This document shows positions 16,711 through 31,228 of a stretch of DNA of 55,711 nucleotides, piece by piece; position 1 is the stretch's first letter; every line of letters begins with the position of its first letter. The position numbers were made by a program, and so were the translations under genes. The notes under the pieces were generated by a model, which ran no database searches, was not told the DNA's origin, and was given only the letters and a program-made list of their open reading frames with translations. The stretch is from a virus (taxonomy: Duplodnaviria > Caudoviricetes): IMG/VR virus record IMGVR_UViG_3300032024_000424, positions 1 to 55,711 of that record, one strand, 5' to 3'.

Positions 16711-17292
16711 ATGGCCTCGAGCCACTTCATCGTTTCGGACCCGTTCACCGCGACCCTCATCCGCGTCAAGGCCAAACAGCTCTGCCGTCGCTCCGACTTC
16801 TCCAAGTCGGACTACGACGAACTGCGTCAGGGCATGCGTCTTTACCTTTTGGAGAAGGCGCACCTGTTCGATCCCGAGCGCGGCAACCTTGAGGCATTCG
16901 TCACCAACGCCATCAAGACCTGGGTGGCCATGCAGCTGCGCTACCGCACCTGCGGCAAGCGGTGCCAAGACCTTACCGCGGTGTCGCTGGAAGGCACCAC
17001 CGTAGAGCACGAGGGCAACCTCACCAGCCTCGTCAGCGTGCTGCTGGCGGAGGACGGTCATCGGACCACCCAGTCCTACCCCAAGTCCGAAATCGAGCAG
17101 TTCGAGCTGCGCGAAGCGATCGCCCATGTGATGGCTCAGCTCGATCCGGACGACCGCGACCTCCTGATCAGTGTGGCTCAGAACGGTCTGAAGGCTACGG
17201 CGCGCCAGCTCGGGGTGTCGTGGCGGCAGGTGACCAACGCGCTCAATCGCATGCGTGGCATCTTCGAAAAGGCCGGCCTCGGCCCCAACTAA
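16711..17292 (+). CDS. Sigma-70-like phage regulator
   Basis: DELRQ..L..FDPERG..FV; C-terminal HTH (ARQLGVS). Confidence 0.75.
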   Translation: MASSHFIVSDPFTATLIRVKAKQLCRRSDFSKSDYDELRQGMRLYLLEKAHLFDPERGNLEAFVTNAIKTWVAMQLRYRTCGKRCQDLTAVSLEGTTVEHEGNLTSLVSVLLAEDGHRTTQSYPKSEIEQFELREAIAHVMAQLDPDDRDLLISVAQNGLKATARQLGVSWRQVTNALNRMRGIFEKAGLGPN

Positions 17293-17343
17293 TCGGGACG
17301 GGTGATCCTCTTCGGCATAGGTAACCAAAGAACACGACGCGTT

Positions 17344-17387
17344 CCCCACGAGGGCTCAGCCGGCCGAGCCGCGCGGCCCTCGTGGGG
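17344..17387 (+). promoter_or_regulatory. Strong hairpin upstream of the exonuclease gene
   Basis: CCCCACGAGGGC ... GCCCTCGTGGGG, a 12-bp perfect inverted repeat. Confidence 0.55.
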
Positions 17388-17416
17388 CGGCGGGAACTAT
17401 CCACACGAAAGGCATC

Positions 17417-18223
17417 ATGGAACTGACCATCGACCTCAATGTCCTCACGGCGGAACCCGCCGACACCTACCACGCCAAGGCCAGCCAGTACCTGTCCAGC
17501 CATCAATTGCTGGACTTCATGGCCTGCCCGTGGCTCTACCGCAAGAAACAGCTCGGGCTGCTGCCCGACACGGACTCGCCGGCGCTTCTGATCGGCCGCG
17601 CTGCGCACAGCCGCATCCTCGAGGGCCGCGACGCCTACGAGGCGCAGTTCGCCCTCGGCGGCCCGATCAATAAGTCCACCGGCAGGCCATTTGGCAAGGA
17701 CACACAAGCCTTCCGGGGGTGGTGCAAGGCGCAGGGCAAGCCGGGCGTCCACCACGACGACCTGGCGCTGATCGAAAATATGGCCAGCGGCGTGGCGATG
17801 AACAGCGAGGCGGTGGACCTGCTGCTCTACGGCCGCTCCGAGGGCGTGGTCCGCACGGACTACTGCGGCGTGCCGAGCCAGGTCCGATTGGACTGGGTGC
17901 ATCCGCACCGGGGCATCATCGATCTGAAAACCGTTTCAAATCTCGACGCGTTTCCCTACGAGGCCAAACGCTGGCGATACCACAACCAGTTGGCGTTTTA
18001 TCAAGCGGTGCTCGCCGAGGTAATTGGGCAATTCGTTCCCGTCTATTTGATCGCCATCGAGAAATCCGAGCCGTATCGCGCCGGCATGTGGCGACTCGGC
18101 GACCAGACGCTGGCGTCAGCACGCCGCGAGAACGAGGCGGCGATCGAACGGCTCAAGCACGCGTGGGCGAAAGATGAGTTCCCCACCGGCTACGAAAGCA
18201 TCAGGACATTGGAGATCGCATAG
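17417..18223 (+). CDS. PD-(D/E)XK exonuclease (DUF3799, RecE/ExoVIII-like)
   Basis: YHA..LSS, GRAAH, SE, RLD, IDLKT, YHNQLAFY. Confidence 0.85.
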   Translation: MELTIDLNVLTAEPADTYHAKASQYLSSHQLLDFMACPWLYRKKQLGLLPDTDSPALLIGRAAHSRILEGRDAYEAQFALGGPINKSTGRPFGKDTQAFRGWCKAQGKPGVHHDDLALIENMASGVAMNSEAVDLLLYGRSEGVVRTDYCGVPSQVRLDWVHPHRGIIDLKTVSNLDAFPYEAKRWRYHNQLAFYQAVLAEVIGQFVPVYLIAIEKSEPYRAGMWRLGDQTLASARRENEAAIERLKHAWAKDEFPTGYESIRTLEIA

Positions 18224-18224
18224 A

Positions 18225-18309
18225 GGCGCGGTGTGGCGAGTCAAGGTATGGCGAGGTCCGGCTTGGTCGGGCTGGGTGGGGCGTGGTTGGGCAAGGCATG
18301 GCATGGTCT
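18225..18309 (+). ncRNA. GGY-NN pentamer array 1 (putative VIPR-type guide RNA)
   Basis: 17 in-register pentamers (16 GGC/GGT, one GTC). NN = GC GT GA AA AT GA CC TT CG TG GG GT TG AA AT AT CT. Confidence 0.85.
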
Positions 18310-18326
18310 TTTTCAAAGGAATCAAA

Positions 18327-18962
18327 ATGATAACGACAGCGACCCCCGGAAAACAAACAGCCGTCGGGCCTGAAGCGACCAACGGCGCGGCTGGCGCCAT
18401 CGAGGCGGGCATTCCCTACATCGTCGATGTATTGATCGAAGGTGTCGCTGACCTGCTGTTCCACCGGTGGAATTGTGAAGCGGTGGCGGAGAAGGCCAAC
18501 GCCGCCAAGGGCAGCGCGGCCAAAAAGCGCGACGACATCGAATCGTACCTATACCGCAACGACGCGGGTGAAATCTGCCTGCCGGGCGAGTACGTGCGGC
18601 AGGCGGTCATCGGCGCGGCCAAATATCGCCAGGACCCGCGCAGCCCCCGCAAGAGCGCCACCGACCTGTTCAAGGCGGCGATTGTGTCGCTGACGCCCCT
18701 GGTGGGTCTGGGGATCGAATCACATCATTATGAACATCGGTGCCGCGTAACCGTCCAGCGCAGCGGCATCACGCGGATCCGGCCCGCGATCAAGAGCGGC
18801 TGGAGGGCGGAGATGTCGTTTCTGGTGAACCTGCCGGAATACATCGCGCCACAGATGCTGCACGAAGTGCTGACACAAGCCGGCCAATTGATCGGTGTGG
18901 GAGACTTCCGCCCGACCTACGGCCGCTTCCAGGTCCGCCGATTTGAAGTACGGCCAACGTAA
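18327..18962 (+). CDS. Cas7/RAMP-like protein 1 (Vipr-like)
   Basis: 211 aa; DLLFH, YRN..EICLPGE, RIRP, C-terminal G-loop AGQLIGVGDFRPTYGRF. AAGGA RBS directly after array 1. Confidence 0.8.
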   Translation: MITTATPGKQTAVGPEATNGAAGAIEAGIPYIVDVLIEGVADLLFHRWNCEAVAEKANAAKGSAAKKRDDIESYLYRNDAGEICLPGEYVRQAVIGAAKYRQDPRSPRKSATDLFKAAIVSLTPLVGLGIESHHYEHRCRVTVQRSGITRIRPAIKSGWRAEMSFLVNLPEYIAPQMLHEVLTQAGQLIGVGDFRPTYGRFQVRRFEVRPT

Positions 18963-18971
18963 CACTTCTCT

Positions 18972-19090
18972 GCGCCCGGGCGGGCCCCTCGTTCTGAAGG
19001 GGTAGGAAGCAGTCGTGCCGCAACGGCATGGATGCCTTATCAGGTTCCCCGGATGGAAGGCGGCTCTTCTTGCTTTGGCCGCCCGGGCGC
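18972..19090 (+). other. Structured intergenic element
   Basis: GCGCCCGGGCGG / CCGCCCGGGCGC closing stem with internal hairpins (TGCCGCAACGGCA; CCCCT...AGGGG). Confidence 0.5.
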
Positions 19091-19159
19091 TTCTTTTAGA
19101 TGTCGAGATAAGCAACAACGGACCGTGACGCGAACCCAAACAACCGAGAGGCACGACGC

Positions 19160-19978
19160 ATGACCCTGATGAACTCACTGATCAAGTCCACCACGCCCGC
19201 GCCGCCTAAGTTGATCGTCTACGGCCAGCCCGGCGTCGGCAAGACGACCTTCGCCGCGTCGGCCGGTGCGATCTTGCTGGACTGCGAGAACGGCGCCGGC
19301 GCTGTGCCCGGCCTGACCCGGACGCCGTACCTCGAGACCTGGCCGCAGATGCGCCAGTGGCTGGTCGAACTCGCCTCCGATCCGCCGCAGGGATTCTCGG
19401 CGCTGGCCATCGACACGATCGACTGGATGGTCCAGCGGATCGTCGAGCACGTGGTGCTGGAACTGGACGGTAAAGCGCGGGGCGACATCACCAACACGCT
19501 GGGCACCGCGCACGGCGGGTACTTCAAGGCCCGAGAGATCGTTCAGAACATCGTCTACCGCGACCTGCTGCCCATGCTCAACGCCGTGGCCGGCCGGGGC
19601 GCGGCCGTCATCCTGCTGGCCCACGCGGCCAACACGAAGCTGACCACGCCCGAGGGCTTCGACCAGCGCCTCGCCTCGCCGGACATCCCGCACTGGATCG
19701 CGCCACCCTTCATCGAATGGGCCGATGGCGTGTTGTACGCCTGTGCCGAAAAGGATCGGCGCGTGCTGAAGACCCAGGGCACCAACGTGATCCTGGCCAA
19801 GAACCGCTACAGCCTGCCCCCGGAAGTGCCGTTGTCCTGGCCCGCGCTGGTAGAGGGCATGAACTTCCCCACGAGCCCGACAAAACCAACCCCGCCCAAA
19901 CCTGAACCTACCCAGAACACCGAACCGCCGGCCGTCGTCGGCTTCGTCGGTCCCAACTCAACCAACCAGGAGAATTGA
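19160..19978 (+). CDS. AAA_24 / Sak4-like ATPase
   Basis: YGQPGVGKTT, IDTIDW, LAH, EWAD, AKNRY. Confidence 0.9.
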   Translation: MTLMNSLIKSTTPAPPKLIVYGQPGVGKTTFAASAGAILLDCENGAGAVPGLTRTPYLETWPQMRQWLVELASDPPQGFSALAIDTIDWMVQRIVEHVVLELDGKARGDITNTLGTAHGGYFKAREIVQNIVYRDLLPMLNAVAGRGAAVILLAHAANTKLTTPEGFDQRLASPDIPHWIAPPFIEWADGVLYACAEKDRRVLKTQGTNVILAKNRYSLPPEVPLSWPALVEGMNFPTSPTKPTPPKPEPTQNTEPPAVVGFVGPNSTNQEN

Positions 19979-19981
19979 TCC

Positions 19982-20443
19982 ATGGCCCATCTAAACGGCT
20001 TTGACGCGACCCAGGTGGAGCCCACAACCCCGTTCGAGCCGCTGCCGGCCGGGAAGTACGTAGCCTGCATCACGGCCAGCGAGATGAAAGCCACCAAGCA
20101 GGGAGACGGCAGCTATTTGCAGCTTGAACTCACCGTGCTCGAGGGCGAGTACAAGGGCCGCAAGGTATGGGACCGGCTGTGTCTGAACCACAGTAATCCC
20201 AAGGCGGTGCAGATCGCGCGGGGTACGTTGTCGGCGCTGTGCAGAAGCATCGGCGTTCTTCAACCTCGAGATTCGGCGGAGTTACACAACGTACCGCTGA
20301 TTGTCTCGGTTAAGTGCAAGAAGCGTAACGACACCCAGGAGATCGCTAACGAAATTGGTGGTTATGAATCGAAGTCCGCTGCGGTGCCGGACGCTTCCCG
20401 CCAGGCACCGGTGAACAATCAGACACCGCCCTGGAAACGCTGA
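19982..20443 (+). CDS. DUF669 phage ssDNA-binding protein
   Basis: FEPLPAGKY, GEYKGRKVWDRL, C-terminal PPWKR. Confidence 0.85.
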   Translation: MAHLNGFDATQVEPTTPFEPLPAGKYVACITASEMKATKQGDGSYLQLELTVLEGEYKGRKVWDRLCLNHSNPKAVQIARGTLSALCRSIGVLQPRDSAELHNVPLIVSVKCKKRNDTQEIANEIGGYESKSAAVPDASRQAPVNNQTPPWKR

Positions 20444-20497
20444 TTATCACCGATAAACAATCGTCGTGACTTGTTACAGCAGCGCGCGTTAAAGACT

Positions 20498-20600
20498 GGC
20501 TCGGCGCGGCATGGCTGGCCCAGGCGCGGTGTGGCGGGGTGTGGCATGGCCAGGCCCGGCAAGGCATGGCGCCCGCGCCGGTGGAAACACGGGCGCGGGC
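20498..20600 (+). ncRNA. GGY-NN pentamer array 2 with 3' GAAA hairpin (putative guide RNA)
   Basis: 15 pentamers (one GCC variant). NN = TC GC AT TG CA GC GT GG GT AT CA CC AA AT GC. Followed by GCCCGCGCCGGTG-GAAA-CACGGGCGCGGGC (20571-20600). Confidence 0.85.
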
Positions 20601-20629
20601 CATTCGGGAACCTCTACAGAGGCATCAGC

Positions 20630-21247
20630 ATGAACAAGCCAACCGCGATCGGCCCGGCAGTCACGAATGGGGCCGCGACCGCAATCGAATCCTCTTTACC
20701 CTACCGCATCGCAGTCACTATCCGCGGCGATTCGGACCTGCTGTTCCACCGCTGGAACTGCGAGGCGGTCGCGGCCAAGGCCAAGGCGGCCAAGGGCTCG
20801 GCGGCCAAGAAGACGGACGACGTCGAGTCCTATGTGTACCGCAACGACGACGGCGAACTGTGCATCCCGGGCGAGTACCTGCGTCAGGCGATCATCGGCA
20901 CCGCTAAGTTCCGCCAGGACCCTCGCTCGGCACGCAAGTCGGCCCAGGACCTGGTCAAGGCAGCTGTGATCAGCCTGACGCCGCTGGCGAGTTTGGGCGT
21001 CCGAGACTGGGACTACGAACACCGCTGCCGGGTCCAGGTGCAGCGCGCCGGTGTGACCCGCGTGCGGCCCGCGATCGCGGCCGGCTGGTCAGCCAGTTTC
21101 GTCTTCCTGGTCAATCTGCCCGAGTACGTGTCGCCGCAGATGCTCCACGGCCTGATCAGTGACGCGGGCAGGCTCGTCGGGATCGCGGACTTTCGTCCGA
21201 CCTACGGGCGATTCCAACTTACATGTTTCGAGATGCTCACCGACTGA
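20630..21247 (+). CDS. Cas7/RAMP-like protein 2 (Vipr-like)
   Basis: 205 aa paralog of 18327-18962; shares DLLFHRWNCEAVA, RQDPRS, YEHRCRV, DFRPTYGRFQ. Confidence 0.8.
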   Translation: MNKPTAIGPAVTNGAATAIESSLPYRIAVTIRGDSDLLFHRWNCEAVAAKAKAAKGSAAKKTDDVESYVYRNDDGELCIPGEYLRQAIIGTAKFRQDPRSARKSAQDLVKAAVISLTPLASLGVRDWDYEHRCRVQVQRAGVTRVRPAIAAGWSASFVFLVNLPEYVSPQMLHGLISDAGRLVGIADFRPTYGRFQLTCFEMLTD

Positions 21248-21248
21248 A

Positions 21249-21290
21249 CCCGACGCTACCACTGACAACACGCCGCCCTGGAAGCGCTGA
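21249..21290 (+). repeat. Orphan duplicate of the DUF669 gene 3' end
   Basis: Encodes PDATTDNTPPWKR*; ACGCCGCCCTGGAAGCGCTGA versus ACACCGCCCTGGAAACGCTGA at 20423-20443. Confidence 0.8.
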
Positions 21291-21329
21291 TCCACTTCCT
21301 CAGCTTCAAACACCACAAAGGACCCACCC

Positions 21330-21566
21330 ATGAGCCTGTTCGTCTCCCTATTCATCCTCTGGATCATCTGCGTGCCGGCGTGCTACCTGCTCCTACGCGA
21401 GGACCACATCGCGGCGACGCAGGGCCGATGGACGCAGATCGACCGCCTCTTCTGGCTGGGCATCTCGCTGGTCTACGGACCGGTCATGCTCATCGCTATA
21501 GTCGGTGTCGCGGTGTTCAACCGGCTCAGCGCTTCGAAGTGGGGCCAGCGCGAGGCCCGCTGGTGA
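21330..21566 (+). CDS. Small membrane protein
   Basis: Two hydrophobic segments; AAGGA RBS. Confidence 0.7.
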   Translation: MSLFVSLFILWIICVPACYLLLREDHIAATQGRWTQIDRLFWLGISLVYGPVMLIAIVGVAVFNRLSASKWGQREARW

Positions 21567-21805
21567 GGCTCGTCCTGCCGTACCCGCCATCCGTGAACCA
21601 CTACTGGCGCAGCTACCGCGGCCGGGTGGTACTGAGCGCCGAAGGCCGAGCTTACCGCGAGGATGTCTGCGACCTCCTGGCCACCGCCCCCGCAATGGGC
21701 GGCAACGGCCCGCGCAAGCCGCCCTCTGGCGGGCGGATCGCGCTGGGCATGGACGCGTTCCCGCCGGATCGGCGGAGGCGTGATACAGACACTGAACTCA
21801 ACTGA
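21563..21805 (+). pseudogene. rusA: Truncated RusA-family resolvase
   Basis: LPYPPSVNHYWR...FPPDRRRRD, then stops where the D-L-D-N motif and C-terminal half are expected. Confidence 0.75.
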
Positions 21806-21808
21806 ACG

Positions 21809-22618
21809 ATGAAGTTGCAACCGACCCTTACTTGCCAGTCGTGCGGAGTGGAGGCCATACGCACCGGGCCCACCCAGCGTTATTGCCGCGTCTGCTCGGA
21901 GTCGCGCGACTTCCTGCGGAAACGCCGCTGGGCGAGGCAACACGTGCCGAACGAGGAACAGCGGCGTCGGACTGGCGCGGGCCGTCGTCGCCGTACAGAG
22001 TTGGCCCGCGAGGCGGGCCGGCTCATCAACCGCCGGCACTGCCGATCGACGGATTGGAATTCCGGGGGCGCCGACAGGCCGCTTCTCTGGCGGGTGTGCG
22101 CCGCCGTGCCGTTCTCTTACGCGGCGTCGAAGAACCACATCTACGCGCTAACGCTCAAGAAAGGGCATGTGGCACTTCGCCGGGAGTCGAGGGCGTTGCG
22201 CGGCCGTATCACCGCGGCACTCCGGGCCGCGATCGGGGGTCGGCGCGTGGCGCACAACAAGGTCTGGATCGATGTGCTCGTTCAGAAGCCGAACCACAAG
22301 GGCGACGCGGTCAACGTGGTCGACCTGGTGTGCGACGCGGTGAAGGACGCGCTGCCCGTGGATGACCGCTGGTTCTGCATCCGCCGGCTGGACTGGGAGG
22401 TCTGCAAGAACGACGGCCAACTGATCGTCGGCGTCGGGCAGGAGTCCGATGCCGACAGCCAGGTGTGTTCCTATTGCGGCCTGATCAGGCCGCTGGCGGA
22501 GTTCAATGTCTCGCGGCATCAACCGCTTGGGGTGGGACGCGAGTGCAAACAATGCCGCCGGGAAGGCCGGCTACTCGCCAAGCAGAAGAACCCGCAGGAC
22601 ACGGGGGTGGCGGCATGA
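21809..22618 (+). CDS. Zn-finger-flanked divergent RusA-like nuclease
   Basis: CQSC/CRVC at the N-terminus; VPFS..SKN, GDAVN...DAVKD..VDD core; CSYC/CKQC at the C-terminus. Confidence 0.6.
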   Translation: MKLQPTLTCQSCGVEAIRTGPTQRYCRVCSESRDFLRKRRWARQHVPNEEQRRRTGAGRRRRTELAREAGRLINRRHCRSTDWNSGGADRPLLWRVCAAVPFSYAASKNHIYALTLKKGHVALRRESRALRGRITAALRAAIGGRRVAHNKVWIDVLVQKPNHKGDAVNVVDLVCDAVKDALPVDDRWFCIRRLDWEVCKNDGQLIVGVGQESDADSQVCSYCGLIRPLAEFNVSRHQPLGVGRECKQCRREGRLLAKQKNPQDTGVAA

Positions 22619-24337
22619 CCACGGGGGTCTCACCCTCCCAATCGATCCAACTCCGCCCCTACCAGGCCGAAGCAGTTAACGCGGTGTACGAGCATCTGCG
22701 CACGCGGGACGACAATCCCTGCGTGGTGATCCCCACCGCGGGCGGAAAAACCCCCGTGATGGCCACCATCTGCCGCGACGTGGTCCAGCAGTGGGACGGC
22801 CGGATCCTCATCCTCGCGCACGTGAAGGAACTGCTCGATCAGGCGGCCGACAAGCTGCACACCATGGCGCCGGACCTCTGGAACCGGATCGGCGTCTACT
22901 CGGCGGGTTTGAAAAGCCGCGACACGGACCACCCCATCATCGTCGCCGGGATCCAGAGCGTGTACCGCCGCGCGTGCGACCTGGGCCGCTTCGACCTGAT
23001 CCTCCTGGATGAATGCCACATGCTTCCGTCCGACGGCGAGGGTATGTACCGCGCGTTCCTAGCAGACGCGAAGGTGGTCAATCCGAACGTCCGCCTGATC
23101 GGCCTGACCGCCACGCCCTACCGCATGACCACGGGCACGATCTGCGGCCCGCCGCCCGATCACCTGCTCAACCACGTCTGCTACGAGGTGGGTGTGCGCG
23201 AGCTGATTGTCCAGGGCTACCTCTGCCCGCTGAAGACCAAGGCCGGCAAACGCAAGGCCGACTTCCAGAACCTGCACCTGCGAGGAGGTGAGTTTATTCC
23301 GGGGGAGGTCGAGGCCCTGATGGACGAGGACGGGCTTGTCAGCTCGGCGTGTTACGAGATCATCGAGCACACCAAGGACCGCCGCTCGGTGCTGATCTTC
23401 GCGGCGGGCGTCAAGCACGCTCAGCACGTGCAGCGCATCCTCAACGGCCTGGGCCACGAGTGCGGCTTCGTCTGCGGCGACACGCTGCCGTTCGACCGAA
23501 CCGAGACGCTCGAGCGCTTCAGATCCGGGGGCCTGAAGTACCTGGTCAATGTCAACGTGCTGACCACCGGCTTCGATGCCCCCGGAATTGATTGTGTGGT
23601 GTTGCTGCGCCCCACGAACTCGCCCGGCCTCTACTACCAGGCGGTTGGTCGTGGATTCCGCCTGCACCCGTCGAAGGAAGACTGCCTCGTTCTGGACTTC
23701 GGCGGCAATATCCTGCGCCACGGGCCGGTTGATGCGCTGCAGATCAAGGACCGCGCCCAAGGTAATGGCGATGCGCCGGCGAAGGAGTGCCCGCAATGCC
23801 AGACGGTGGTCCACGCCGCGTACAGCGTCTGTCCGGAGTGCGGCTTCGAGTTCCCGCCGCCCGATCGCCAGAGGCACGAGCGCGCGCGAGGCGGCCACGG
23901 TGGGCATCCTCAGCGGCGAAGTGACGGAGACGGAGTACGAGGTACAGGACGTCTATTACTCGGCGCACACCAAGCGCGGTGCCCCGGAAGGTCATCCCCG
24001 CACACTGCGGGTGGATTACTGCGTGGCGTTGGGCGATTACCGCAGCGAGTGGGTCTGCGTCGAACACCCGTCCGGCAGCTTCGCGCGGCAGAAGGCGGAT
24101 GCGTGGTGGCGGGCGCGGTCAAGTGAGCCGTGCCCGACCGATGCCGACGCGGCCGCCGAGTTGGCCACTGCCGGGGCGCTGGCTAAGAGCCGGGCGATCA
24201 CCGTGCGCAGCGTGACCGGCGAGAAGTACGACCGCATCGTCGCGCACGAACTCGACGAGGTCCCGCAGGCCGTGGGCGACTTAGCGGGCGGCGAGCCGGA
24301 CTACGTGCACATCCCCGACGAGGAAATCCCGTTCTGA
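22615..24337 (+). pseudogene. SF2 helicase (RadD/YejH-like), frameshifted near 23881-23888
   Basis: LRPYQ, PTAGGKT, DECH, LTATP, TTGFDAP, GRGFR, CPQC/CPEC. The plausible C-terminus ending DEEIPF is in another frame. Confidence 0.8.
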
Positions 24338-26610
24338 TGCTGGCCGACCACGCTGTATCCTACCTGCGGGCCGGCCTCTGCGTCCTGCCCGCCAAGCGCC
24401 TCGAGAAGCGCCCGGCTATCGGCGCGTGGAAGCAATACCAGAAGCGCGCGCCCACGGAGGCCGAGTTGTCGGCGTGGATGGCCAACCCCCGGAATCACCC
24501 CGACGCGGTCTGCATCCTGTGCGGAGCCGTCTCGGGCCACCTCGAGACCCTCGACTTCGACGCCGGCGGCGAACGGTTCGCGGCGTGGTGGGACCGCATC
24601 CCCGCCGCGTTACGCGACAGGCTCGTGGTCGAGACCACCCCTTCCGGCGGCATGCACGTGGTCTACCGATGCGCGGCGCCGGTCTGCGGCAACCTGAAGC
24701 TGGCGCAGCGCAAGGTCGGCAAAGAGGTCGAAACGCTCATCGAGACACGCGGCGAGGGCGGCCTGTTCCTGTGCGCGCCGACCCTGGGTTACATCCTCGC
24801 CCACGGCGACCTGTGCGATCTGCCCGTGCTCACCGAAGCAGAACGCGACGTCCTGCTCCAGGCGGCGTGGGAGCTGAACGAGTACATGCCGGCTGTGGTC
24901 GATGCCCCTGTCCGATCGTCAACTGCCGGGCAACTGCGCGCCGACGGGTGCGCGAGCGCCGACAGGCCGGGTGACGACTTTAACACCCGCGGCGACCCCC
25001 GGGTGGTGCTCGAACAGCACGGCTGGTCCCGCGTGGGTGGCGGCGAGAACGAATACTGGCGGCGCCCGGGCAAGGCCTCGGGTTGGTCGGCGACACTCAA
25101 AGAATGTTCCGGGGGCGGCGTGTTCTATGTGTTCAGCTCGAACGCGGCACCGTTCGAGCCCAACCGGGCCTATTCGCCGTTCTCGGTGTACGCGCTACTC
25201 AACCACGGCGGCGACTTCGAGCAGGCGGCGAGGTCGCTACGCGCGGCCGGCTACGGTAGCGACCTGCGGGGTGATGAACACCCGGGGGTGGACATCTCCG
25301 GCATCCTCGGCCAGGTCGACGGCAACGGTGCTGATCACGCCGGCGACGATGACGGTCAGCGTGACATCGCCGACCCCGGCCCGATCCCCGAATCCCTGTT
25401 CCGTGTGCCCGGCTTCGTGTCGCGGGTGATGGAGTTCACCCTGGCCAACGCGCCCTACCCGAACGTGGGCTTGGCGTTCTGCGGGGCCGTGGCGCTTCAG
25501 TCCTACCTCTGCGGCCGCAAGGTCTGCGACAGCGGTGACCTGCGCCCGAACCTCTACCTGCTGGCGCTGGCCAGCTCGGGCACGGGTAAGGACTTCCCAC
25601 GAAAGGTCAACGCCCGCGTGCTCTTCGAGGTCGGACACGTCGCGGCGCTGGGCGATAAGTTCGCCTCGGGCGAGGGCATCCAGGACGCCCTGGCCCGCAC
25701 CAGCGCCATGCTCTTCCAGAACGACGAGATGGACGGCGTGCTGCGGCAGATCAACCTCGACCGCGAGAACAAGCGCGAGTCGATCCCCAACGTCCTGCTG
25801 ACGCTCTACACCTCCGCCGCCGACGTGTACCCCATCCGCGTCAAGGCCGGGCAGAAGGAAGCGGCGCACATCGACCAGCCGCACCTGACGCTCTTCGGCA
25901 CCGCCACGCCGCAGTACTTCTACGAGTCGCTCAGCCAGCGGATGCTCACCAACGGCTTCTTCGCCCGCCTGATCATCGTGGACATCGGCAAGCGAGGCGA
26001 AGGCCAGACACCCGGAAGTGCCCGGCAACTCCCTGAACCGGTCGTGCAGGCCGCGCGCTGGTGGGCGGAGTTCCAGCCCGGATCGCGCCGTGCGAACCTG
26101 CTGGAGGTTCATCCCGAGCCCAGGGTCGTGCCCGCAACACCCGAGGCGCAGGAGGCGATCAGGGCGCTACAGCGCCAGACCGAGCGGGAGTACGACGCCG
26201 CGCACGAACGCAACGACGAGGTCGCGCGCGTCGCGTGGAGCCGCACGCTGGAGAACGCCAAGAAGCTGGCGCTGATCTACGCCTGCAGCGAGAACCACGA
26301 GGACCCGATCATCGGTCTGCCCGCGGTGGAATGGGCGCGGACGTTCGCTATGCACCAGACGCGCAGGCAGCTGTACCTGGCGGGGAGCTACATGGCCGAG
26401 AACCCGTTCCACGCCGAGTGCCTGAAACTGATGCGGAAGTTAAAAGCAGCGCCCGACCAAAGGATGGACCACAGCAGCCTCTTACAGCGCATGCACACCA
26501 AGGCAACGGATTTCCGCGAACTGATCCAGACGCTGGTGCAGCGCGGCGAGATCGAAGTGATCACAACCCCAAGGGCCGGGAGCCACAAGGTGGAGTATCA
26601 CGTTCTATGA
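24337..26610 (+). CDS. Bifunctional primase-polymerase + DUF3987 helicase-like protein
   Basis: KRP..WK.YQ, LDFD, TPSGGMH, ETRGEGG; ASSGTGKD P-loop. Confidence 0.85.
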   Translation: MLADHAVSYLRAGLCVLPAKRLEKRPAIGAWKQYQKRAPTEAELSAWMANPRNHPDAVCILCGAVSGHLETLDFDAGGERFAAWWDRIPAALRDRLVVETTPSGGMHVVYRCAAPVCGNLKLAQRKVGKEVETLIETRGEGGLFLCAPTLGYILAHGDLCDLPVLTEAERDVLLQAAWELNEYMPAVVDAPVRSSTAGQLRADGCASADRPGDDFNTRGDPRVVLEQHGWSRVGGGENEYWRRPGKASGWSATLKECSGGGVFYVFSSNAAPFEPNRAYSPFSVYALLNHGGDFEQAARSLRAAGYGSDLRGDEHPGVDISGILGQVDGNGADHAGDDDGQRDIADPGPIPESLFRVPGFVSRVMEFTLANAPYPNVGLAFCGAVALQSYLCGRKVCDSGDLRPNLYLLALASSGTGKDFPRKVNARVLFEVGHVAALGDKFASGEGIQDALARTSAMLFQNDEMDGVLRQINLDRENKRESIPNVLLTLYTSAADVYPIRVKAGQKEAAHIDQPHLTLFGTATPQYFYESLSQRMLTNGFFARLIIVDIGKRGEGQTPGSARQLPEPVVQAARWWAEFQPGSRRANLLEVHPEPRVVPATPEAQEAIRALQRQTEREYDAAHERNDEVARVAWSRTLENAKKLALIYACSENHEDPIIGLPAVEWARTFAMHQTRRQLYLAGSYMAENPFHAECLKLMRKLKAAPDQRMDHSSLLQRMHTKATDFRELIQTLVQRGEIEVITTPRAGSHKVEYHVL

Positions 26611-26624
26611 AAGCCCTTCCCACG

Positions 26625-26875
26625 TTTAACCCAGATTTAGCAGGTTTAGCAAATCGGCCGGGCTTGACCGCCCAAAACGCCTCCAGGCTTAGCAGGTTTG
26701 ACACCAGGTTTAACACGGGCCCGCTAAACGTGGGAATCGCCCTAAGTATAGTAATAGTAATAACTCACACTCTCTCTTCTCTCACCTTTAGCACTTTAAC
26801 CCCCACCCCCTCTCATATGGGGTTTTAGGCCCCCGCGCGTTCGCGCGAGGGGTGTGTTAATCGAGACCTGCTAAA
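26625..26875. promoter_or_regulatory. Candidate replication origin
   Basis: TTAGCAGGTTT direct repeats (26637, 26689), inverted ACCTGCTAAA (about 26866) and an AT-rich tract, directly after the primase gene. Confidence 0.5.
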
Positions 26876-26904
26876 GCAGCCTCTACCAACCCGAAAGGAT
26901 TCAC

Positions 26905-27213
26905 ATGACCACGACCCCGTCCTGCGTCGACTGCCGCTACTTCGTACCCGAGGGGCGCCTACACAACGATCTCGATGAAGAAGAAGCCGCACGCCCCGAC
27001 CGCGTGGATGGCGAATGCCGGCGCCACTGCCCGACTCTGGGCCCGATGCTCACTGATCGGCACGGCGACGAGTTCCGCCACTACGGCGAATGGCCAAAGG
27101 TCATGGGCTGCGATAGCTGCGGCGAGTTTCGACTACGCGAACGCGCAGCGCAGCACGCGCCGCAGCCAATCGAAGACGCGTCGTGCGCGTGCGCAGAGCG
27201 CGCCGCTTCGTAA
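26905..27213 (+). CDS. Small Cys-rich hypothetical protein
   Basis: CVDCRYF, GECRRH.P, WP.V..CDSCGEF; AAGGA RBS. Confidence 0.7.
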   Translation: MTTTPSCVDCRYFVPEGRLHNDLDEEEAARPDRVDGECRRHCPTLGPMLTDRHGDEFRHYGEWPKVMGCDSCGEFRLRERAAQHAPQPIEDASCACAERAAS

Positions 27214-27454
27214 CAGGTCGCACACGTTGGCCCGTGTTGCGCCGGGCGCGCGCGGTCGTACACCACTACGACCAACACAGCGCGCCAACACGGGCGAACG
27301 TGGGCGATCGAGTGGGGTGCCAGTATGGCAGGATTTGAATAGGTACTTCCGTGTACCGACTGCCAGAATGGCACGGGAACGCGTCGGTTGTGGAGGAAGA
27401 GTTTGTATGGGACGCGCCGATTTTGGCGCTCCCCTGATGAGGAGCACTAAATGC

Positions 27455-27744
27455 ATGGATGCCAAGGAGATACGGGCAGCATGGCGGCCACGGCGGCTGC
27501 CAGCGGGGCCTGTGTCGCCACTGCGGCGGGCTGTTCTATGTGACCCGCTCCGACGGCCGTGACTGCCGGCCGACGTGTCGCCAGCAGGCGTACCGGACGA
27601 CGACGCCCCGCACCGCACGCCCGCCACTCAACAACACCAAAGGACGGACACAACCGCTGTCTCATCGAGCCCCGCAACATTGACGGCATCCGCTTGCTTG
27701 AGCGGAACCTGCGAATCAACGAGCCAGCGGTCGAAGCCGCCTGA
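27455..27744 (+). pseudogene. Probable frameshifted Zn-finger gene
   Basis: GAGGAG RBS; MDAKEIR, CRHCG..TRSD..C...CRQQAYR and ...AVEAA* lie in different frames. Confidence 0.4.
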
Positions 27745-27787
27745 GGGGCACGTTGGGTTTTGAAGGTCGCCGGGGATCGCATCGGTG

Positions 27788-27895
27788 GGCGTGGCATGGC
27801 ATGGCGCGGCGGGGCCAGGCACGGCCGGGCTGGGTAAGGCGCGGCGCGGCATGGACAGGTCCGGCGGGGGTAACGCCCCGGCGGGCCGTTGGACC
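27788..27895 (+). ncRNA. GGY-NN pentamer array 3 (orphan putative guide RNA) with 3' hairpin
   Basis: 13 perfect GGY pentamers. NN = GT AT AT GC GG CA AC CG TG AA GC GC AT, then GGACA and a GGTCCGGCGG...CCGTTGGACC stem. Confidence 0.8.
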
Positions 27896-27922
27896 GGATC
27901 ATTCAAACATGGAGGTTTGCTT

Positions 27923-30151
27923 ATGCAGGTGAGCTTGTGGCCGATTGAGCGTGTGAAGCCGTATGAGAACAACCCCCGCGTTGTGGAGAAGGCGGTGGAG
28001 CCGGTGGCCCGATCCATCCAGGAGTTCGGCTGGCGTCAGCCGCTGGTGGTGGACGAAGAGGGCGTGCTGATCGTGGGCCACGTTCGGCTGCTGGCCGCCC
28101 GGAAGCTCGGCCTGAAGGAGGTGCCGGTCCACGTCGCCACCGGCCTTTCGCCGGAGAGGGTCCGCGCCTACAGGCTTGCCGACAACAAGACCGGCGAGCT
28201 GGCTAAGTGGGACATGGATATCCTGCCCATCGAGCTGAACGAGCTGCGTGAGGGTGGATTTGATATGGGGGTGCTGGCGTTTGATGACGAAGAACTGGCG
28301 AAGCTGATCAACGCGGCGGCGGGTGTCACGGAGGGGCTGACCGACCCTGACGAGGTGCCCGAGCCGCCCGACGACCCGATCACGCAGCGCGGGGACATCT
28401 GGGTGCTCGGCGACCACCGCCTCATGTGCGGCGACTCGTCGAAGGCCGAGGACCTGGACCGTCTGCTGGACGGCGCGAACATCGACCTGTTTGCGAGTGA
28501 CCCGCCCTATAACGTCCGTGTCGAACCTCGCAGCAACAACGCGATCGCGGCGGGCAACTCCTCGTTCAAGGCGTCGGGCAAGAAGGCTGGTTCCGGGGGT
28601 GTTTCCGGGGGTGTTTCCGGGGGCGGCGGCCACCATCAGAAGATGGACCTGGCCCGCCACCCGGGCAAGGCCAAGGGCACGCACAAGCAGATGCGGGCCA
28701 AGGACCGGCCGCTCGCCAACGACTTCGTCCCCCCGGAAGTTTTCGACGAGATGCTGTTAGCTTGGTTCGGCAACGCGTCGCGCGTGCTCAAGCCCGGCGG
28801 CTCGTTCTACATCTGGGGCGGCTACGCCAACCTCGGCAACTACCCCGGCCCGCTGAAGGCGGCGGGCCTGTACTTCAGCCAGGGGATCGTCTGGGACAAA
28901 CAGCACCCGGTGCTGACGCGCAAGGACTTCATGGGCGCGTTCGAGCTGTGCCAACCGCCCGACACGAAGGTCATGACACCCGCGGGAGAATCGCGACTCA
29001 GCGCACTTTGTGATGACGATGAGGTAGTGACATTCGCCAAGAGTTCCGGCGCAATCATCGGTCACCGGCGTGGTCCGAAGGTTCGGGTCGGCACGCGTCA
29101 TTACGGCGGCCCGCTCTACGGCGTCACGGCTGAGGCAAAGACCACTTGGTGCACCGATGGTCACCAGTTCAGCGTCAGGCTGGCGCCTCATGTTCGCAAT
29201 GTCTGGTGCGTGTATCTCATGCGGCGTGGGCGGTGGTGGCGTGTTGGCAAATCAAAGCTCCTGACCACGTGGGGGCTTGGGGTGAAGCAGCGCCTGGAGA
29301 AGGAAGGGGGTGAGGAGGCGTGGATTCTCAGCACCCATATGTCAAACACCGAGGCGGCCTGCGCGGAGCAGATCGTTTCGGCCCGCTACGGAATCCCCAC
29401 GACGTATTGGACCGAAACGAAAAGTTCCAAGCGCACGCACTCGCAGATCGCTCGCATCTACGAGCGGATTGATCCGATGGCGCTGCACCGAAGCGCGCTG
29501 TGGGCGCTATCCGACTATCACCGCCGAATCGAATATCCGTTCATTGAGCGGCAAAACACCCGGCCCAAATATGGCCGTCGCGTTTCCTTCGTCACCCGTG
29601 CCTGCAACCTGCTGCCGGGCGTCATGGAATTGCCCGTTCCCACTGGGGGCCCACACTATCGGTGGACGCCGATTCGCCACGTCGATGTGCAGGATTACAG
29701 CGGGCAGGTCTACTCACTCGATGTGGCAAAGCACCACCACTATATCGCCGACGGCATGGTCACGCACAACTGCTTCTACGGCTGGAAGGAGGGCGCGGGC
29801 CACCACTTCTACGGCCCGAACAACGCGACCGACCTCTGGCACGTCAAGAAGGTGAACCCGCAGAGCATGGTCCACCTGACCGAGAAGCCGGTCGAGCTGG
29901 CGGTGCGCGCGATCCAGTACTCGTCCAAGCCCGGAGAAAACGTGCTGGACCTCTTCGGTGGCAGCGGCTCGACGCTGATCGGCTGCGAGCAGACGGACCG
30001 GCGTGCGTTCCTGATGGAGATCGACCCGGCGTATTGTGACGTTATTGTCCAGAGGTGGGAGCAGTTCACGGGGAAGAAGGCGGAGCGGACCGAGGCCGGC
30101 ACACCAGGCGATGCGGCGGCCGAGCCCGTGGGTGCGGAGGCTTCCTCATGA
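27923..30151 (+). CDS. ParB-like domain + N6/N4 DNA methyltransferase, intein-containing
   Basis: PYENNPR, GHxR, ADNKT; DPPY; HLTEKPVEL; DLFGGSGST. GGAGG RBS before ATG 27923. Confidence 0.92.
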   Translation: MQVSLWPIERVKPYENNPRVVEKAVEPVARSIQEFGWRQPLVVDEEGVLIVGHVRLLAARKLGLKEVPVHVATGLSPERVRAYRLADNKTGELAKWDMDILPIELNELREGGFDMGVLAFDDEELAKLINAAAGVTEGLTDPDEVPEPPDDPITQRGDIWVLGDHRLMCGDSSKAEDLDRLLDGANIDLFASDPPYNVRVEPRSNNAIAAGNSSFKASGKKAGSGGVSGGVSGGGGHHQKMDLARHPGKAKGTHKQMRAKDRPLANDFVPPEVFDEMLLAWFGNASRVLKPGGSFYIWGGYANLGNYPGPLKAAGLYFSQGIVWDKQHPVLTRKDFMGAFELCQPPDTKVMTPAGESRLSALCDDDEVVTFAKSSGAIIGHRRGPKVRVGTRHYGGPLYGVTAEAKTTWCTDGHQFSVRLAPHVRNVWCVYLMRRGRWWRVGKSKLLTTWGLGVKQRLEKEGGEEAWILSTHMSNTEAACAEQIVSARYGIPTTYWTETKSSKRTHSQIARIYERIDPMALHRSALWALSDYHRRIEYPFIERQNTRPKYGRRVSFVTRACNLLPGVMELPVPTGGPHYRWTPIRHVDVQDYSGQVYSLDVAKHHHYIADGMVTHNCFYGWKEGAGHHFYGPNNATDLWHVKKVNPQSMVHLTEKPVELAVRAIQYSSKPGENVLDLFGGSGSTLIGCEQTDRRAFLMEIDPAYCDVIVQRWEQFTGKKAERTEAGTPGDAAAEPVGAEASS
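28949..29770 (+). mobile_element. Intein (274 aa) with GIY-YIG-like insert
   Basis: Starts CQPPDTKV; TDGH block B; VYSLDV..HHYIADGMVTHN followed by extein Cys. Removal restores FEL-CFYGWKEG. Confidence 0.9.
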
Positions 30152-30387
30152 TCTTCCACCCGCGGGTCAATCAGCGAGTGCGCGTCCATTACACCCGCCG
30201 AGCGGCGGCGCACATGCCGCTGCACGGCAAGGTGGGCGTGGTGCGGGTCGTAGCTACAGGACGGGGCCCGCGTAACGTGGGCGTCGAGATCGACGGCCGT
30301 GTGTTCGTGATCCCCCGCGGCAATCTTGTGGCCGTGCCGGAGAAAACCTCGACCGGTCAGGCCGAGGTGGAAGGGATGGGCAAGTGA
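30148..30387 (+). CDS. Small KOW/SH3-like hypothetical protein
   Basis: Overlaps the MTase stop; HGKVGVV..GPRNVGVEIDG. Confidence 0.6.
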   Translation: MIFHPRVNQRVRVHYTRRAAAHMPLHGKVGVVRVVATGRGPRNVGVEIDGRVFVIPRGNLVAVPEKTSTGQAEVEGMGK

Positions 30388-30392
30388 TGGAG

Positions 30393-30763
30393 TCAGTATG
30401 GCGCTTCGGCCAGGTACATGAACTCGATCATGGCGTCTTCGTAGAGCGCGCCGGAGGCGGGGTAGGTGCGTCGCATGCGGACCTCGACGCAGCCGCGTTC
30501 CTTCATGAAGGCCAGCGCGACGTTGACCTGCGTGAAGGGCGCATCCATCGCCTGGGCGAGTTCCTCGAGCGTCGTGCCGCCCGCCGCGTGCTCCTCGATG
30601 GTGAATGCGACCTCGCGGAAGATGTGGCGGGTGCAGCGGTGGAGGTAACCTCTGTCCGGGGCGTCGGGGAACGAAACCTTCATCTCAAGGTGGTCGTCCA
30701 CACCACGTCGAAGGTCACGACTCTATTCCGGGGGCGGTTCCGGGGGCGGGGGTGGGTTGCCAT
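30393..30763 (-). pseudogene. Small HTH-like protein, likely 2-nt frameshift near 30702
   Basis: ATG 30763 (after AAGGAG) reads MATHP..VTFDVV; the continuation DDHLEMKV is out of frame. Confidence 0.5.
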
Positions 30764-30766
30764 GGG

Positions 30767-30982
30767 TCAGACTCCTTTGAAGCGGCCGCGTTCGACTCGC
30801 TCGATCCTGCCCTGCTTCGCCAGTTCCGCGAGCCGCACCGACATCTGAAGCTTGGTGACGGCGATGCCCCAGGCATTGAGCTTTTCGGTCAGTTGATTGG
30901 CGTTGATGGCGGTCTCACTCGCGACGACGGTGCCGATGATGATCCGGGTCAATTCGCCGCGTTCCAGGTTGCGTTTTTCCAT
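30767..30982 (-). CDS. Small wHTH hypothetical protein
   Basis: RLAELAKQGRIERVERGRF; AAGGAG RBS. Confidence 0.65.
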   Translation of the reverse strand: MEKRNLERGELTRIIIGTVVASETAINANQLTEKLNAWGIAVTKLQMSVRLAELAKQGRIERVERGRFKGV

Positions 30983-30985
30983 GGT

Positions 30986-31228
30986 TCACGCTCCTTTCTC
31001 GCGCATGGCGATGGCTCGGCGACGCGCGTACTGGACGGCGTTGCGCCAGTCGGAGAACGTTGCCAGCACGTTCGTGCCGTCCATCGTGCCCGGCGCGTGG
31101 ATGTAGAACCGGTTGTCGTCGGGATTGAACGTGGCGGGGGAGCCATGCACGAGTCCCTGCTCAACCATCGGCTCACCGTTCGGGTGAGTCTTAAGTCGGT
31201 AAGGCGGGCCCATATCCTGTTGCTGCAT
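30986..31228 (-). CDS. Hypothetical protein
   Basis: AAGGAG RBS; tight operon spacing. Confidence 0.6.
   Translation of the reverse strand: MQQQDMGPPYRLKTHPNGEPMVEQGLVHGSPATFNPDDNRFYIHAPGTMDGTNVLATFSDWRNAVQYARRRAIAMREKGA

Follow-up and report, generated by a model that had tools for sequence, protein, structure and literature searches.

A displaced DUF669 gene tail beside a VIPR cassette in a provirus, and the probable joint acquisition of a guide and its resistant allele

Why does the end of one gene stand a second time, one base past the stop codon of another? The question is raised by a locus in a 55.7-kb provirus record of IMG/VR (IMGVR_UViG_3300032024_000424; 55,711 nucleotides (nt), hereafter the window). 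Here, a gene of the DUF669 family, which encodes a protein similar to single-stranded DNA-binding proteins (SSB), is followed by a repeat array, vr2, by a gene, vipr2, and then by a short stretch that reads as a second DUF669 C-terminus, the orphan tail. The array and vipr2 form a cassette that belongs, as judged by homology, to VIPR (short for Viral Interference Programmable Repeat), a kind of system described in 2026 preprints (bioRxiv 10.64898/2026.04.26.720920, 10.64898/2026.10.15.759431 and 10.64898/2026.04.26.720927). We find that the orphan is probably the remnant of a resident DUF669 gene, which was replaced by a block made of a diverged and resistant DUF669 allele, vr2 and vipr2. VIPR itself is already known; the new element is the block of guide plus resistant allele, together with its scar.

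The region 17417-22618, together with a helicase gene, constitutes a phage recombination and replication module, as assigned with Pfam and PHROGs. Related loci are designated by L-numbers; two of them, L154 and L155, are identical in coordinates and scores throughout and are counted as one lineage sampled twice. The features around the orphan are as follows.

19160 to 19978, plus strand: gene of an AAA_24 ATPase (Pfam AAA_24, E 1.6e-23), part of the backbone common to L154 and L155 (80% amino acid identity to L154)
19982 to 20443, plus strand: live DUF669 (SSB-like) gene, probably the incoming allele, with its tail at 20387-20443 (Pfam DUF669, E 1e-17; phrog_6015, SSB, E 3.5e-46)
20230 to 20274, plus strand: own, putatively resistant version of the vr2 target site, SALCRSIGVLQPRD (18/30 for the full guide; 17/24 for the first 12 units)
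20498 to 20572, plus strand: vr2, 15 GGYNN pentamers, one of them irregular (array scan), followed by a hairpin at about 20571-20599
20630 to 21247, plus strand: vipr2 (paralog 2), predicted Vipr RAMP protein, stop codon at 21245-21247 (profile of alignment A5 against PDB 36pp_D; AlphaFold2 model; Foldseek)
21249 to 21290, plus strand: orphan DUF669 tail, PDATTDNTPPWKR and a stop codon (28/30 to L154 over the last 30 nt; right junction at 21248-21260)
21330 to 21566, plus strand: gene of a predicted membrane protein of 78 amino acids (78-aa gene), backbone (81% amino acid identity to L154 and L155; 39-nt spacer after the orphan)

The live DUF669 gene ends in PDASRQAPVNNQTPPWKR and a stop codon. 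A single base, 21248, separates the stop codon of vipr2 from the orphan, and 21249-21290 translates to a second DUF669 C-terminus with its own stop codon; an earlier reading of the letters alone (the sequence-only reading) had noticed this correctly. That reading had described the orphan as in-frame, which is not the case: the orphan is in frame 0, while the live DUF669 gene and vipr2 are in frame 2. The frame of the orphan is that of the downstream gene at 21330, and the same holds for the intact tail in L154. The C-terminus of the DUF669 family is a low-complexity linker followed by a conserved tip, (A/P)PW-basic-basic-stop. The pattern (A/P/S)PW-basic-basic-stop is found in 138 of 209 sequences, nearly always as the DUF669 terminus, and in the six-frame translation of the window PPWKR with a stop codon occurs exactly twice, at the two DUF669 tail sites. 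Because this tip is the conserved C-terminus of the family, the orphan is a piece of a DUF669 gene and a chance match is excluded.

At the nucleotide level, the two tails form a 22-nt direct repeat (20423-20444 and 21270-21291) with 91% identity (20/22), which by itself is barely above background in the window. When the last 60 nt of DUF669 were aligned to the 2 kb downstream in the 156 loci with a complete gene, three loci scored above the downstream background (11 or less), namely L093 with 46, L084 with 21 and the window with 15. Upstream controls reached up to 14 and reverse-complement controls up to 22, the latter in the GC-rich, palindromic L093. The identity of the orphan is secure from the protein motif with its stop codon, the position and the homology to L154, taken together.

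The second tail could be thought functional or fortuitous, either as part of a small open reading frame (ORF), 21159-21290, or as an SSB tip added to Vipr2 by a +1 frameshift. That ORF is open, and the orphan is +1 relative to vipr2 and begins one base past its stop codon. Such a role is nevertheless extremely improbable: contigs from two sequencing runs, X3 and X4, have 2-nt deletions inside the orphan, at 21257 and 21249, so that the orphan is not under coding constraint; no recognisable slippery site is present; and homology to L154 accounts for the orphan fully. The +1 fusion of Vipr2 and tail was rejected on these three grounds.

L154 and L155 were obtained by searching viral contigs with the 78-aa protein. 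They are the nearest relatives of the window on the flanks, with amino acid identities of 80% for AAA_24, 81% for the 78-aa gene, 92% for the Holliday junction resolvase RusA and 88% for the helicase. Over the 8.2 kb examined they have neither vipr paralog and no GGYNN array, and their genes are ordered exonuclease, AAA_24, DUF669, 78-aa gene and RusA. Their sole DUF669 tail ends in QAPATDNTPPWKR (ATDNTPPWKR) and a stop codon, after which a 39-nt spacer leads to the 78-aa gene. The last 30 nt of the orphan match this tail at 28 of 30 positions, compared with 22 of 30 for the live tail. The 39-nt spacer of the window matches that of L154 at 27 of 39 positions, while the sequence past the live stop codon does not align with it. 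Furthermore, a BLAST block that joins 21261-21783 to L154 3932-4451 at 85.7% identity starts inside the DUF669 coding sequence of L154. Cassette-free relatives had been expected to carry a tail that matches 21249-21290 and leads into the gene at 21330, and that is the arrangement in L154 and L155. The contrary outcome, relatives with both tails or with a match to the upstream tail only, was not seen; L154 and L155 have one tail, and it is of the orphan type. The tail match, the homologous spacer and the homolog of the 21330 gene identify the orphan as the displaced resident tail, as had been proposed.

How much of the locus was exchanged is indicated by sliding nucleotide identity to L154. Identity is 0.80-0.88 across AAA_24 and still 0.88 at 19927-19986, falls to 0.63 at 19987-20046, and stays at 0.55-0.70 through the whole of DUF669. 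The DUF669 protein has 153 amino acids in the window and 165 in L154, and the linker differs in length. In rankings by percent identity over the 165 loci, L154 and L155 come first for the exonuclease, AAA_24, the 78-aa gene and RusA, and only 8th to 9th for DUF669 (57% amino acid identity), whose nearest relatives, L033 and L156 (65-66%), have other neighbour genes. From this break at the start of DUF669 and the different kin of the gene, the foreign block comprises the entire DUF669 gene plus the cassette, about 19985-21248 or about 1.26 kb. The left junction lies at about 19978-19990 (near 19985), where the 3' end of AAA_24 meets the start of DUF669, a conserved boundary. The right junction lies at 21248-21260, 1-13 nt past the vipr2 stop codon, and would fall inside the C-terminal linker of the resident gene.

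The sequence-only reading had supposed that the cassette brought merely a replacement 3' end, and this has to be corrected, since the entire DUF669 gene came with it. A related explanation is that a small mobile cassette, consisting of the leader and vipr2, was inserted into the 3' end of DUF669 and brought only a new tail with a resistant site of the homing type, the remainder of the gene being native. Two tails do bracket the cassette, and the first 12 nt of the orphan, CCCGACGCTACC, match the live linker, CCGGACGCTTCC, at 10 of 12 positions, so that a short piece of linker could have travelled. However, from the start codon of DUF669 onwards identity to L154 is low throughout the gene, the cassette shows no domain of a nuclease, integrase or transposase, and what separates sensitive from resistant alleles is a site at 20230-20274, within the gene body and not in the tail. 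We regard insertion of such a small cassette as improbable. The similarity of the first 12 nt also hints that the incoming block already carried a tail fragment, as in L093 (see below). That the orphan is a chimera of donor and recipient remains a suggestion, as a simple in-register crossover fails to give its sequence.

The duplicated tail had further been taken as direct evidence that the cassette is mobile. What holds is horizontal acquisition by recombination; autonomous mobility or homing does not, as no endonuclease, integrase or transposase is encoded. No integrase or transposase gene was found among the ORFs and Pfam matches of 20444-21248, and no inverted repeats were found flanking the cassette. 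The tail repeats agree at 20 of 22 nt and their copies derive from different allele lineages; they are not identical core repeats.

Alternatively, insertion of the cassette could have duplicated the gene's own tail in place, as a long target-site duplication or by crossover with a circular intermediate, the two copies diverging afterwards. L093 presents this picture. There, some 50 nt from the 3' end of DUF669 are directly repeated (3934-3988 and 4793-4848) on the two sides of vipr and its array, and the copies are near-identical, with one indel and one substitution. In addition, of the 165 arrays in relatives, 52 are located up to 400 nt upstream of vipr and 51 up to 400 nt downstream of it, which would fit permuted circular intermediates. 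In the window, on the other hand, the orphan is closer to the L154 tail than to the live tail, the spacer after the orphan is homologous to L154 and the sequence after the live stop codon is not, the whole live gene is of another lineage, and recipient-like phages with an orphan-type tail exist, namely L154 and L155. Duplication in place is therefore unlikely here, and we retain the replacement of a resident gene. In L084, the repeat is located at about 1495-1524 and about 2350-2379, the second copy being more decayed. The repeats of L093 and L084 indicate that tail remnants beside a cassette arose more than once. The arrays of these two loci are long, with 36-39 units, lie downstream of vipr, and have no target in the database of related loci.

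The arrangement is also present in sequencing-run contigs. One 2103-nt contig of run X3, which comes from a study other than that of the likely source runs, spans 19671-21775 and differs by 144 letters and 7 gaps (about 93% identity); it has the same arrangement including the scar. Three contigs of run X4, which belongs to the study of X3, together span this region too. No indel is listed for either run in 19671-21247. Since X3 and X4 share the arrangement and the scar, the replacement is older than their divergence from the window. Among the sequencing-run contigs matched to the window, none joins across the cassette. No RNA run is listed among those that contain this stretch.

What the cassette encodes bears on why a whole gene would be exchanged. 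According to the main text of the first preprint, a Vipr protein coats a guide RNA (vrRNA) of GGY/NN repeats, in which the NN letters recognise double-stranded DNA, one base being skipped in each unit; transcription is silenced upon binding, and the natural targets are competing mobile elements (10.64898/2026.04.26.720920). The skip rule and the silencing were established there for type II systems from phages of E. coli and Pseudomonas (10.64898/2026.04.26.720920). By Vipr we mean a minimal RAMP protein, with RRM core, glycine-rich loop and thumb, that shows homology to Viprs already described; by vrRNA gene, a tandem run of 9-16 pentamers in which GGY is conserved and NN varies, next to vipr and on the same strand. 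The profile of alignment A5 (34 homologs, including both paralogs of the window) matches PDB entry 36pp_D, 'SUSP1 Vipr protein', with E 1.7e-18 over 171 residues, and vipr2 as a single sequence matches it with E 4.7e-5. The AlphaFold2 model of Vipr2 has a mean confidence (pLDDT) of 86.7, and its top Foldseek matches are Csm3/Cas7 proteins at E 2.5e-7 and a template modelling (TM) score of about 0.5. The invariant residues G180, G184, D187, R189, P190, G193 and F195 make up the glycine-rich C-terminal block of A5. Among PHROGs, the paralogs match only phrog_4652, of unknown function. By these homologies, the paralogs are Vipr RAMP proteins and the cassette is a VIPR system. No endonuclease is present in the cassette: Pfam gives no domain in either paralog, and the fold is that of RAMP proteins.

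A second cassette, with the paralog vipr1, is located upstream in the same module and comprises the following features.

17417 to 18223, plus strand: PD-(D/E)XK exonuclease gene, DUF3799 (Pfam DUF3799, E 7.3e-26)
18052 to 18102, plus strand: own mismatched vr1 target site, inside the exonuclease gene (vr1 20/34 for the full guide, 19/26 for the first 13 units)
18225 to 18309, plus strand: vr1, 17 GGYNN pentamers, predicted VIPR guide RNA gene (array scan; begins one base past the exonuclease stop codon)
18327 to 18962, plus strand: vipr1 (paralog 1), predicted Vipr RAMP protein (68% identical to vipr2; phrog_4652; member of alignment A5)

Both cassettes consist of array and vipr only, between backbone genes. 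Vipr2 is up to 83% identical to Vipr proteins of other phages and 68% identical to Vipr1, and vipr follows DUF669 in 38 of 166 sequences (the 165 loci and the window). As vipr2 is nearer to vipr genes of other phages than to vipr1, and the order DUF669-vipr is common, the two cassettes were acquired separately and did not arise by duplication within the genome.

Some further observations concern the first cassette. Compared with L154, vr1 and vipr1 appear as a clean insertion between the exonuclease stop codon and a GC-rich stretch (TCTCT..GCGCCCGGGCGG; 18963-19000 against L154 2412-2450). No duplicated exonuclease tail is found there; only the GC-rich stretch of about 19 nt past the vipr1 stop codon resembles the sequence after the exonuclease in L154. 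A contig of sequencing run X5 joins 17057 to 19222 and skips the exonuclease and this cassette; the shorter arm of this join is only 27 letters long, too weak a basis for use. The exonuclease is only 67% identical to that of L154, which suggests that this gene was possibly exchanged too.

The window holds three GGYNN arrays, vr1, vr2 and a third, vr3, of 17, 15 and 17 units, all on the plus strand; shuffled sequences lead to an expectation of 0.08 per window. VIPR systems have a structured and conserved 3' tail past their repeats. In the window, a hairpin follows vr2 (-39 kcal/mol, z -2.7) and vr3 (z -2.2), and none follows vr1 (z +1.3). The block GGCAAGGCATGG is common to vr1, vr2 and some relatives, being found in 12 of 165 arrays. 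Rfam gives no family in 17000-31000. By analogy with the described systems, the arrays would function as vrRNAs in this clade, and Vipr2 loaded with vr2 would silence rivals.

For target decoding, each GGY was replaced by one wildcard base, and both strands of 208 related loci and the window (1.46 Mb) were searched. Natural targets in the main text of the preprint have an NN match of 80% or more and place the skipped base at the wobble position, and self-targets are absent (10.64898/2026.04.26.720920). Guide vr2 matches one wobble-aligned coding site in DUF669, with consensus SAICRAVGVMQPKD, located at 3712-3756 in L154. The full guide scores at least 24/30 in 40 of 166 DUF669 sequences (165 loci and the window), at best 26/30, with 24/30 in L154 and L155; its score in the window's own gene is 18/30, and shuffled guides give 22 or less. 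In L154, all six mismatches fall in the last three units, which are part of the GGCAAGGCATGG block. The first 12 units match at 24 of 24 positions in L154 and L155 only, among the 208 loci, while the window's own site has 17/24 and 100 shuffles give 19 or less. Five of the 12 units are disrupted in the own site, where five codons are changed non-synonymously.

Guide vr1 behaves in the same way. It matches the exonuclease site AVEKKEPFRCGVWK, at best with 29/34; L154 has 26/34 for the full guide and 25/26 for the first 13 units, compared with 20/34 and 19/26 in the window's own gene. Both vr1 and vr2 are thus located directly downstream of the window's own mismatched copy of the gene that they match in relatives. 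The matches of each guide sit at one wobble-aligned site in one gene family, and the best scores anywhere in the window are 20/34 for vr1, 19/30 for vr2 and 22/34 for vr3, with shuffle maxima of 24, 22 and 24. Setting aside the last 3-4 units as non-guide sequence would be consistent with the 3' block common to vr1 and vr2. The sequence-only reading had supposed that the replacement brought a resistant target site. Such a site exists, at 20230-20274, but it is located in the gene body and not in the tail, and the resistance would be against an RNA guide and not an endonuclease; nothing marks the tail itself as a target.

These matches bear on a further explanation, in which no gene was swapped: insertion near the tail was limited to the cassette, and the DUF669 already present diverged in place while escaping its own or rival guides. 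The own site does have five non-synonymous changes in 12 codons, and vrRNAs of other relatives target DUF669 as well; the array of L088, for example, matches DUF669 in 87 loci. Yet escape mutations would cluster at the target site, whereas identity to L154 is evenly low (0.55-0.70) across the gene and changes abruptly at its start codon; the linker differs in length; and an orphan tail of the L154 type is left unexplained. We assign this course of events a low probability.

The position of vr1 and vr2 suggests a rule, by which the target of a guide is a rival allele of the gene that adjoins the array. The third array allows an independent look at this rule, and its surroundings are the following.

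27788 to 27872, plus strand: vr3, solo array of 17 GGYNN units with no adjoining vipr (array scan)
27923 to 30151, downstream of vr3: ParB-methylase gene (ParB_N/N6_N4 methylase), with the own vr3 site at 28063

The first database, made of DUF669 and vipr loci, gave vr3 a best score of 23/34, which does not exceed the control maximum of 24. The rule predicted a target in the ParB-methylase gene, and 80 homolog loci were then fetched. In these, vr3 matches the ParB_N motif VIIAGHTRWKAAKKLGL, at best with 30/34, in L213, and with 27/28 over the first 14 units. At least 27/34 is reached in 30 of 81 sequences (the 80 loci and the window), while shuffles give 24 or less; the own site at 28063, VLIVGHVRLLAARKLGL, has 20/34. 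At the level of guide-target matching, the rule thus correctly predicted the target of the third array.

The arrays of relatives were consistent with this. All seven relative arrays with matches in at least five loci target a flanking gene (RusA, helicase in three cases, DUF669, exonuclease and AAA_24), so that with vr1 and vr2 the count is 9 of 9 arrays with matches of at least 80% in at least five loci. The best own-locus score of these nine is 59-75%. Most guides have no match: the 165 arrays gave 486 guides or 15-unit sub-windows, and only 37 of these reach at least 80%, many of them being single matches of short guides or overlapping sub-windows of one array of L115, which were treated as noise. 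The target database covers only these modules. Arrays with no adjoining vipr beside their own target gene also occur, in L145 (649-718, after the exonuclease) and in L088 (695-744, before DUF669). The array of L039 (2983-3032) matches at 20 of 20 positions an AAA_24 type that is about 30% identical to the AAA_24 of L039 itself; the resistant copy in this locus is a different gene type and not a point variant.

Based on these results, the history of the locus is probably as follows. The ancestor would have resembled L154 and L155, with exonuclease, AAA_24, DUF669, 78-aa gene and RusA in this order. Recombination would then have swapped the resident DUF669 for the block of about 1.26 kb, containing the diverged DUF669, vr2 and vipr2, with a crossover on the left between the AAA_24 stop codon and the DUF669 start, and on the right inside the resident linker, so that the last 13 codons would persist as non-coding DNA. 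Vipr2 with vr2 would bind the DUF669 coding site of rival phages and silence its transcription. The site of L154 and L155, matched fully over 12 units, would be sensitive, and the incoming allele would escape by its changes in 5 of 12 codons. A recombinant that acquired the guide and retained the sensitive allele would silence its own operon, which may be the reason for which the whole gene was exchanged and not the cassette alone. A remnant that lacks the target site would be harmless.

More generally, a guide and its adjoining resistant allele could act as a weapon-and-shield block that spreads among sibling phages by allele replacement, as an RNA-guided and cleavage-free counterpart of homing and marker exclusion. 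Its guides would be aimed at the nearest kin and their core genes of recombination and replication, only transfers of the whole block would survive, and orphan ends and the repeat of L093 would be footprints that may serve as the right homology arm for the next transfer. We put this forward tentatively, as an idea that has somewhat less than an even chance of being correct.

Several points weigh against the replacement and the role given to the guides. L154 and L155 are only 76-86% identical to the window on the flanks and are proxies of the ancestor, not the ancestor itself. No donor lineage of the live DUF669 allele above 66% identity was found in genome, viral or metagenome contigs, and a DUF669 that simply evolves faster than AAA_24 is a possible alternative cause of the identity break. 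Of the displaced allele 13 codons alone survive, and we therefore infer its sensitivity to the guide. A tail remnant is present in only 3 of the 38 loci with the DUF669-vipr order and in 3 of the 156 with a complete DUF669. With full-length guides, L154 is at or below the 80% cut-off of the preprint (vr2 24/30, 80%; vr1 26/34, 76%), and some targets do match the 3-4 trimmed units. The loci of the target database were retrieved by means of the same genes, so that the choice of visible targets is biased. Finally, the skip rule and the silencing come from work on type II systems, in phages of E. coli and Pseudomonas, and not from this clade.

The locus shares with the described VIPR systems a phage or provirus setting, a small RAMP protein homologous to the SUSP1 Vipr, GGY/NN pentamer arrays beside vipr on the same strand, targets in coding sequence with one base skipped per unit, at the wobble position, the absence of self-targets of at least 80%, and a solo vrRNA (vr3). 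In the main texts of the 2026 preprints, the targets so far are satellites, regulators of lysis-lysogeny and prophages, and other VIPR loci. For vrRNA-targeting vrRNAs, a self-match lower than the non-self match is described, and solo vrRNAs are reported (10.64898/2026.10.15.759431). A guide beside a resistant copy of its target is not described in the passages on alleles, linkage, adjacency, recombination and self-targeting in the main texts of 10.64898/2026.04.26.720920 and 10.64898/2026.10.15.759431, the supplementary target tables lying outside this comparison. The present locus differs in that each guide adjoins the genome's own mismatched copy of the target, that the targets are core genes of sibling phages (exonuclease, SSB-like DUF669 and ParB-methylase, and in relatives RusA, helicase and AAA_24), and that a recombination scar points to joint arrival of gene and cassette. 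A vap accessory gene is typical of VIPR and varies between types; by gene content, with no vap profile search made, none lies between the backbone genes here.

Other known elements resemble the locus in part. Free-standing homing endonuclease genes of T-even phages, known from intronless homing and marker exclusion, are selfish genes that sit beside a resistant copy of their target, while relatives are sensitive, and their flanks are co-inherited. The window likewise has the resistant site in the adjoining gene of the carrier and the sensitive site in cassette-free relatives, in an RNA-guided form. The difference is the absence of an endonuclease; in the systems of the preprints' main texts, the RNA-guided effect is repression rather than cleavage. 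Spread would therefore rely on selection among recombinants and not on the repair of double-strand breaks. Temperate phages exchange modules in a mosaic manner at short conserved sequences on gene boundaries. The left junction at a conserved boundary and the neighbour genes with different nearest relatives are of this kind, and a recombination module (exonuclease, AAA_24, SSB-like protein and RusA) is encoded in the very locus; the right junction differs in being intragenic with a remnant of 13 codons, and the block would have an identifiable selfish rationale. Integrative elements enter the 3' ends of genes, for example tRNA genes, and restore the gene with their own copy. An intact live gene with a displaced partial 3' copy at the far end looks similar, but the window has no integrase there, its copies agree at 20 of 22 nt with no identical core, and the whole gene was replaced.

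The locus adds to VIPR a Planctomycetota-associated clade with predicted guides against sibling phages' essential genes of recombination and replication, a simple, testable rule that equates the target with the rival allele of the gene beside the guide, and a physical scar of the probable joint acquisition of guide and resistant allele. If the linkage is general, VIPR targets would be predictable from the locus alone, some sharp mosaic boundaries and some of the allele turnover in phage replication modules would be explained, and an RNA-guided member would join the selfish elements that combine weapon and immunity.

Downstream of the 78-aa gene, the module continues with two further features and the helicase.

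21566 to 21805: RusA fragment (92% to the RusA of L154)
21809 to 22618: gene of a 269-aa protein, followed by the helicase gene (gene order)

Pfam gives no domain in the 78-aa and 269-aa proteins, as in the vipr paralogs. The RusA gene is a 76-codon N-terminal fragment, 92% identical to the full RusA of 143 amino acids in L154, and homology to L154 stops within it, at 21783. The 269-aa protein has a weak RusA-like stretch (E 0.084, below the cut-off) and a zinc-ribbon or HNH-like C-terminal end, with PHROG matches at about 1e-5. The RusA fragment and the 269-aa gene may be the mirror-image scar of another gene replacement. An array aimed at RusA alleles is carried by L074. The ParB-methylase gene at 27923-30151 holds an intein-like segment (Pfam Intein_splicing, E 1.3e-5). 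In several relatives (L024, L049, L053-L055, L057 and L154-L155), about 1 kb separates two parts of the helicase match, as in L154 with 6095-6208 and 7235-8230, which suggests that these relatives have an intein or an inserted gene that the helicase of the window is without.

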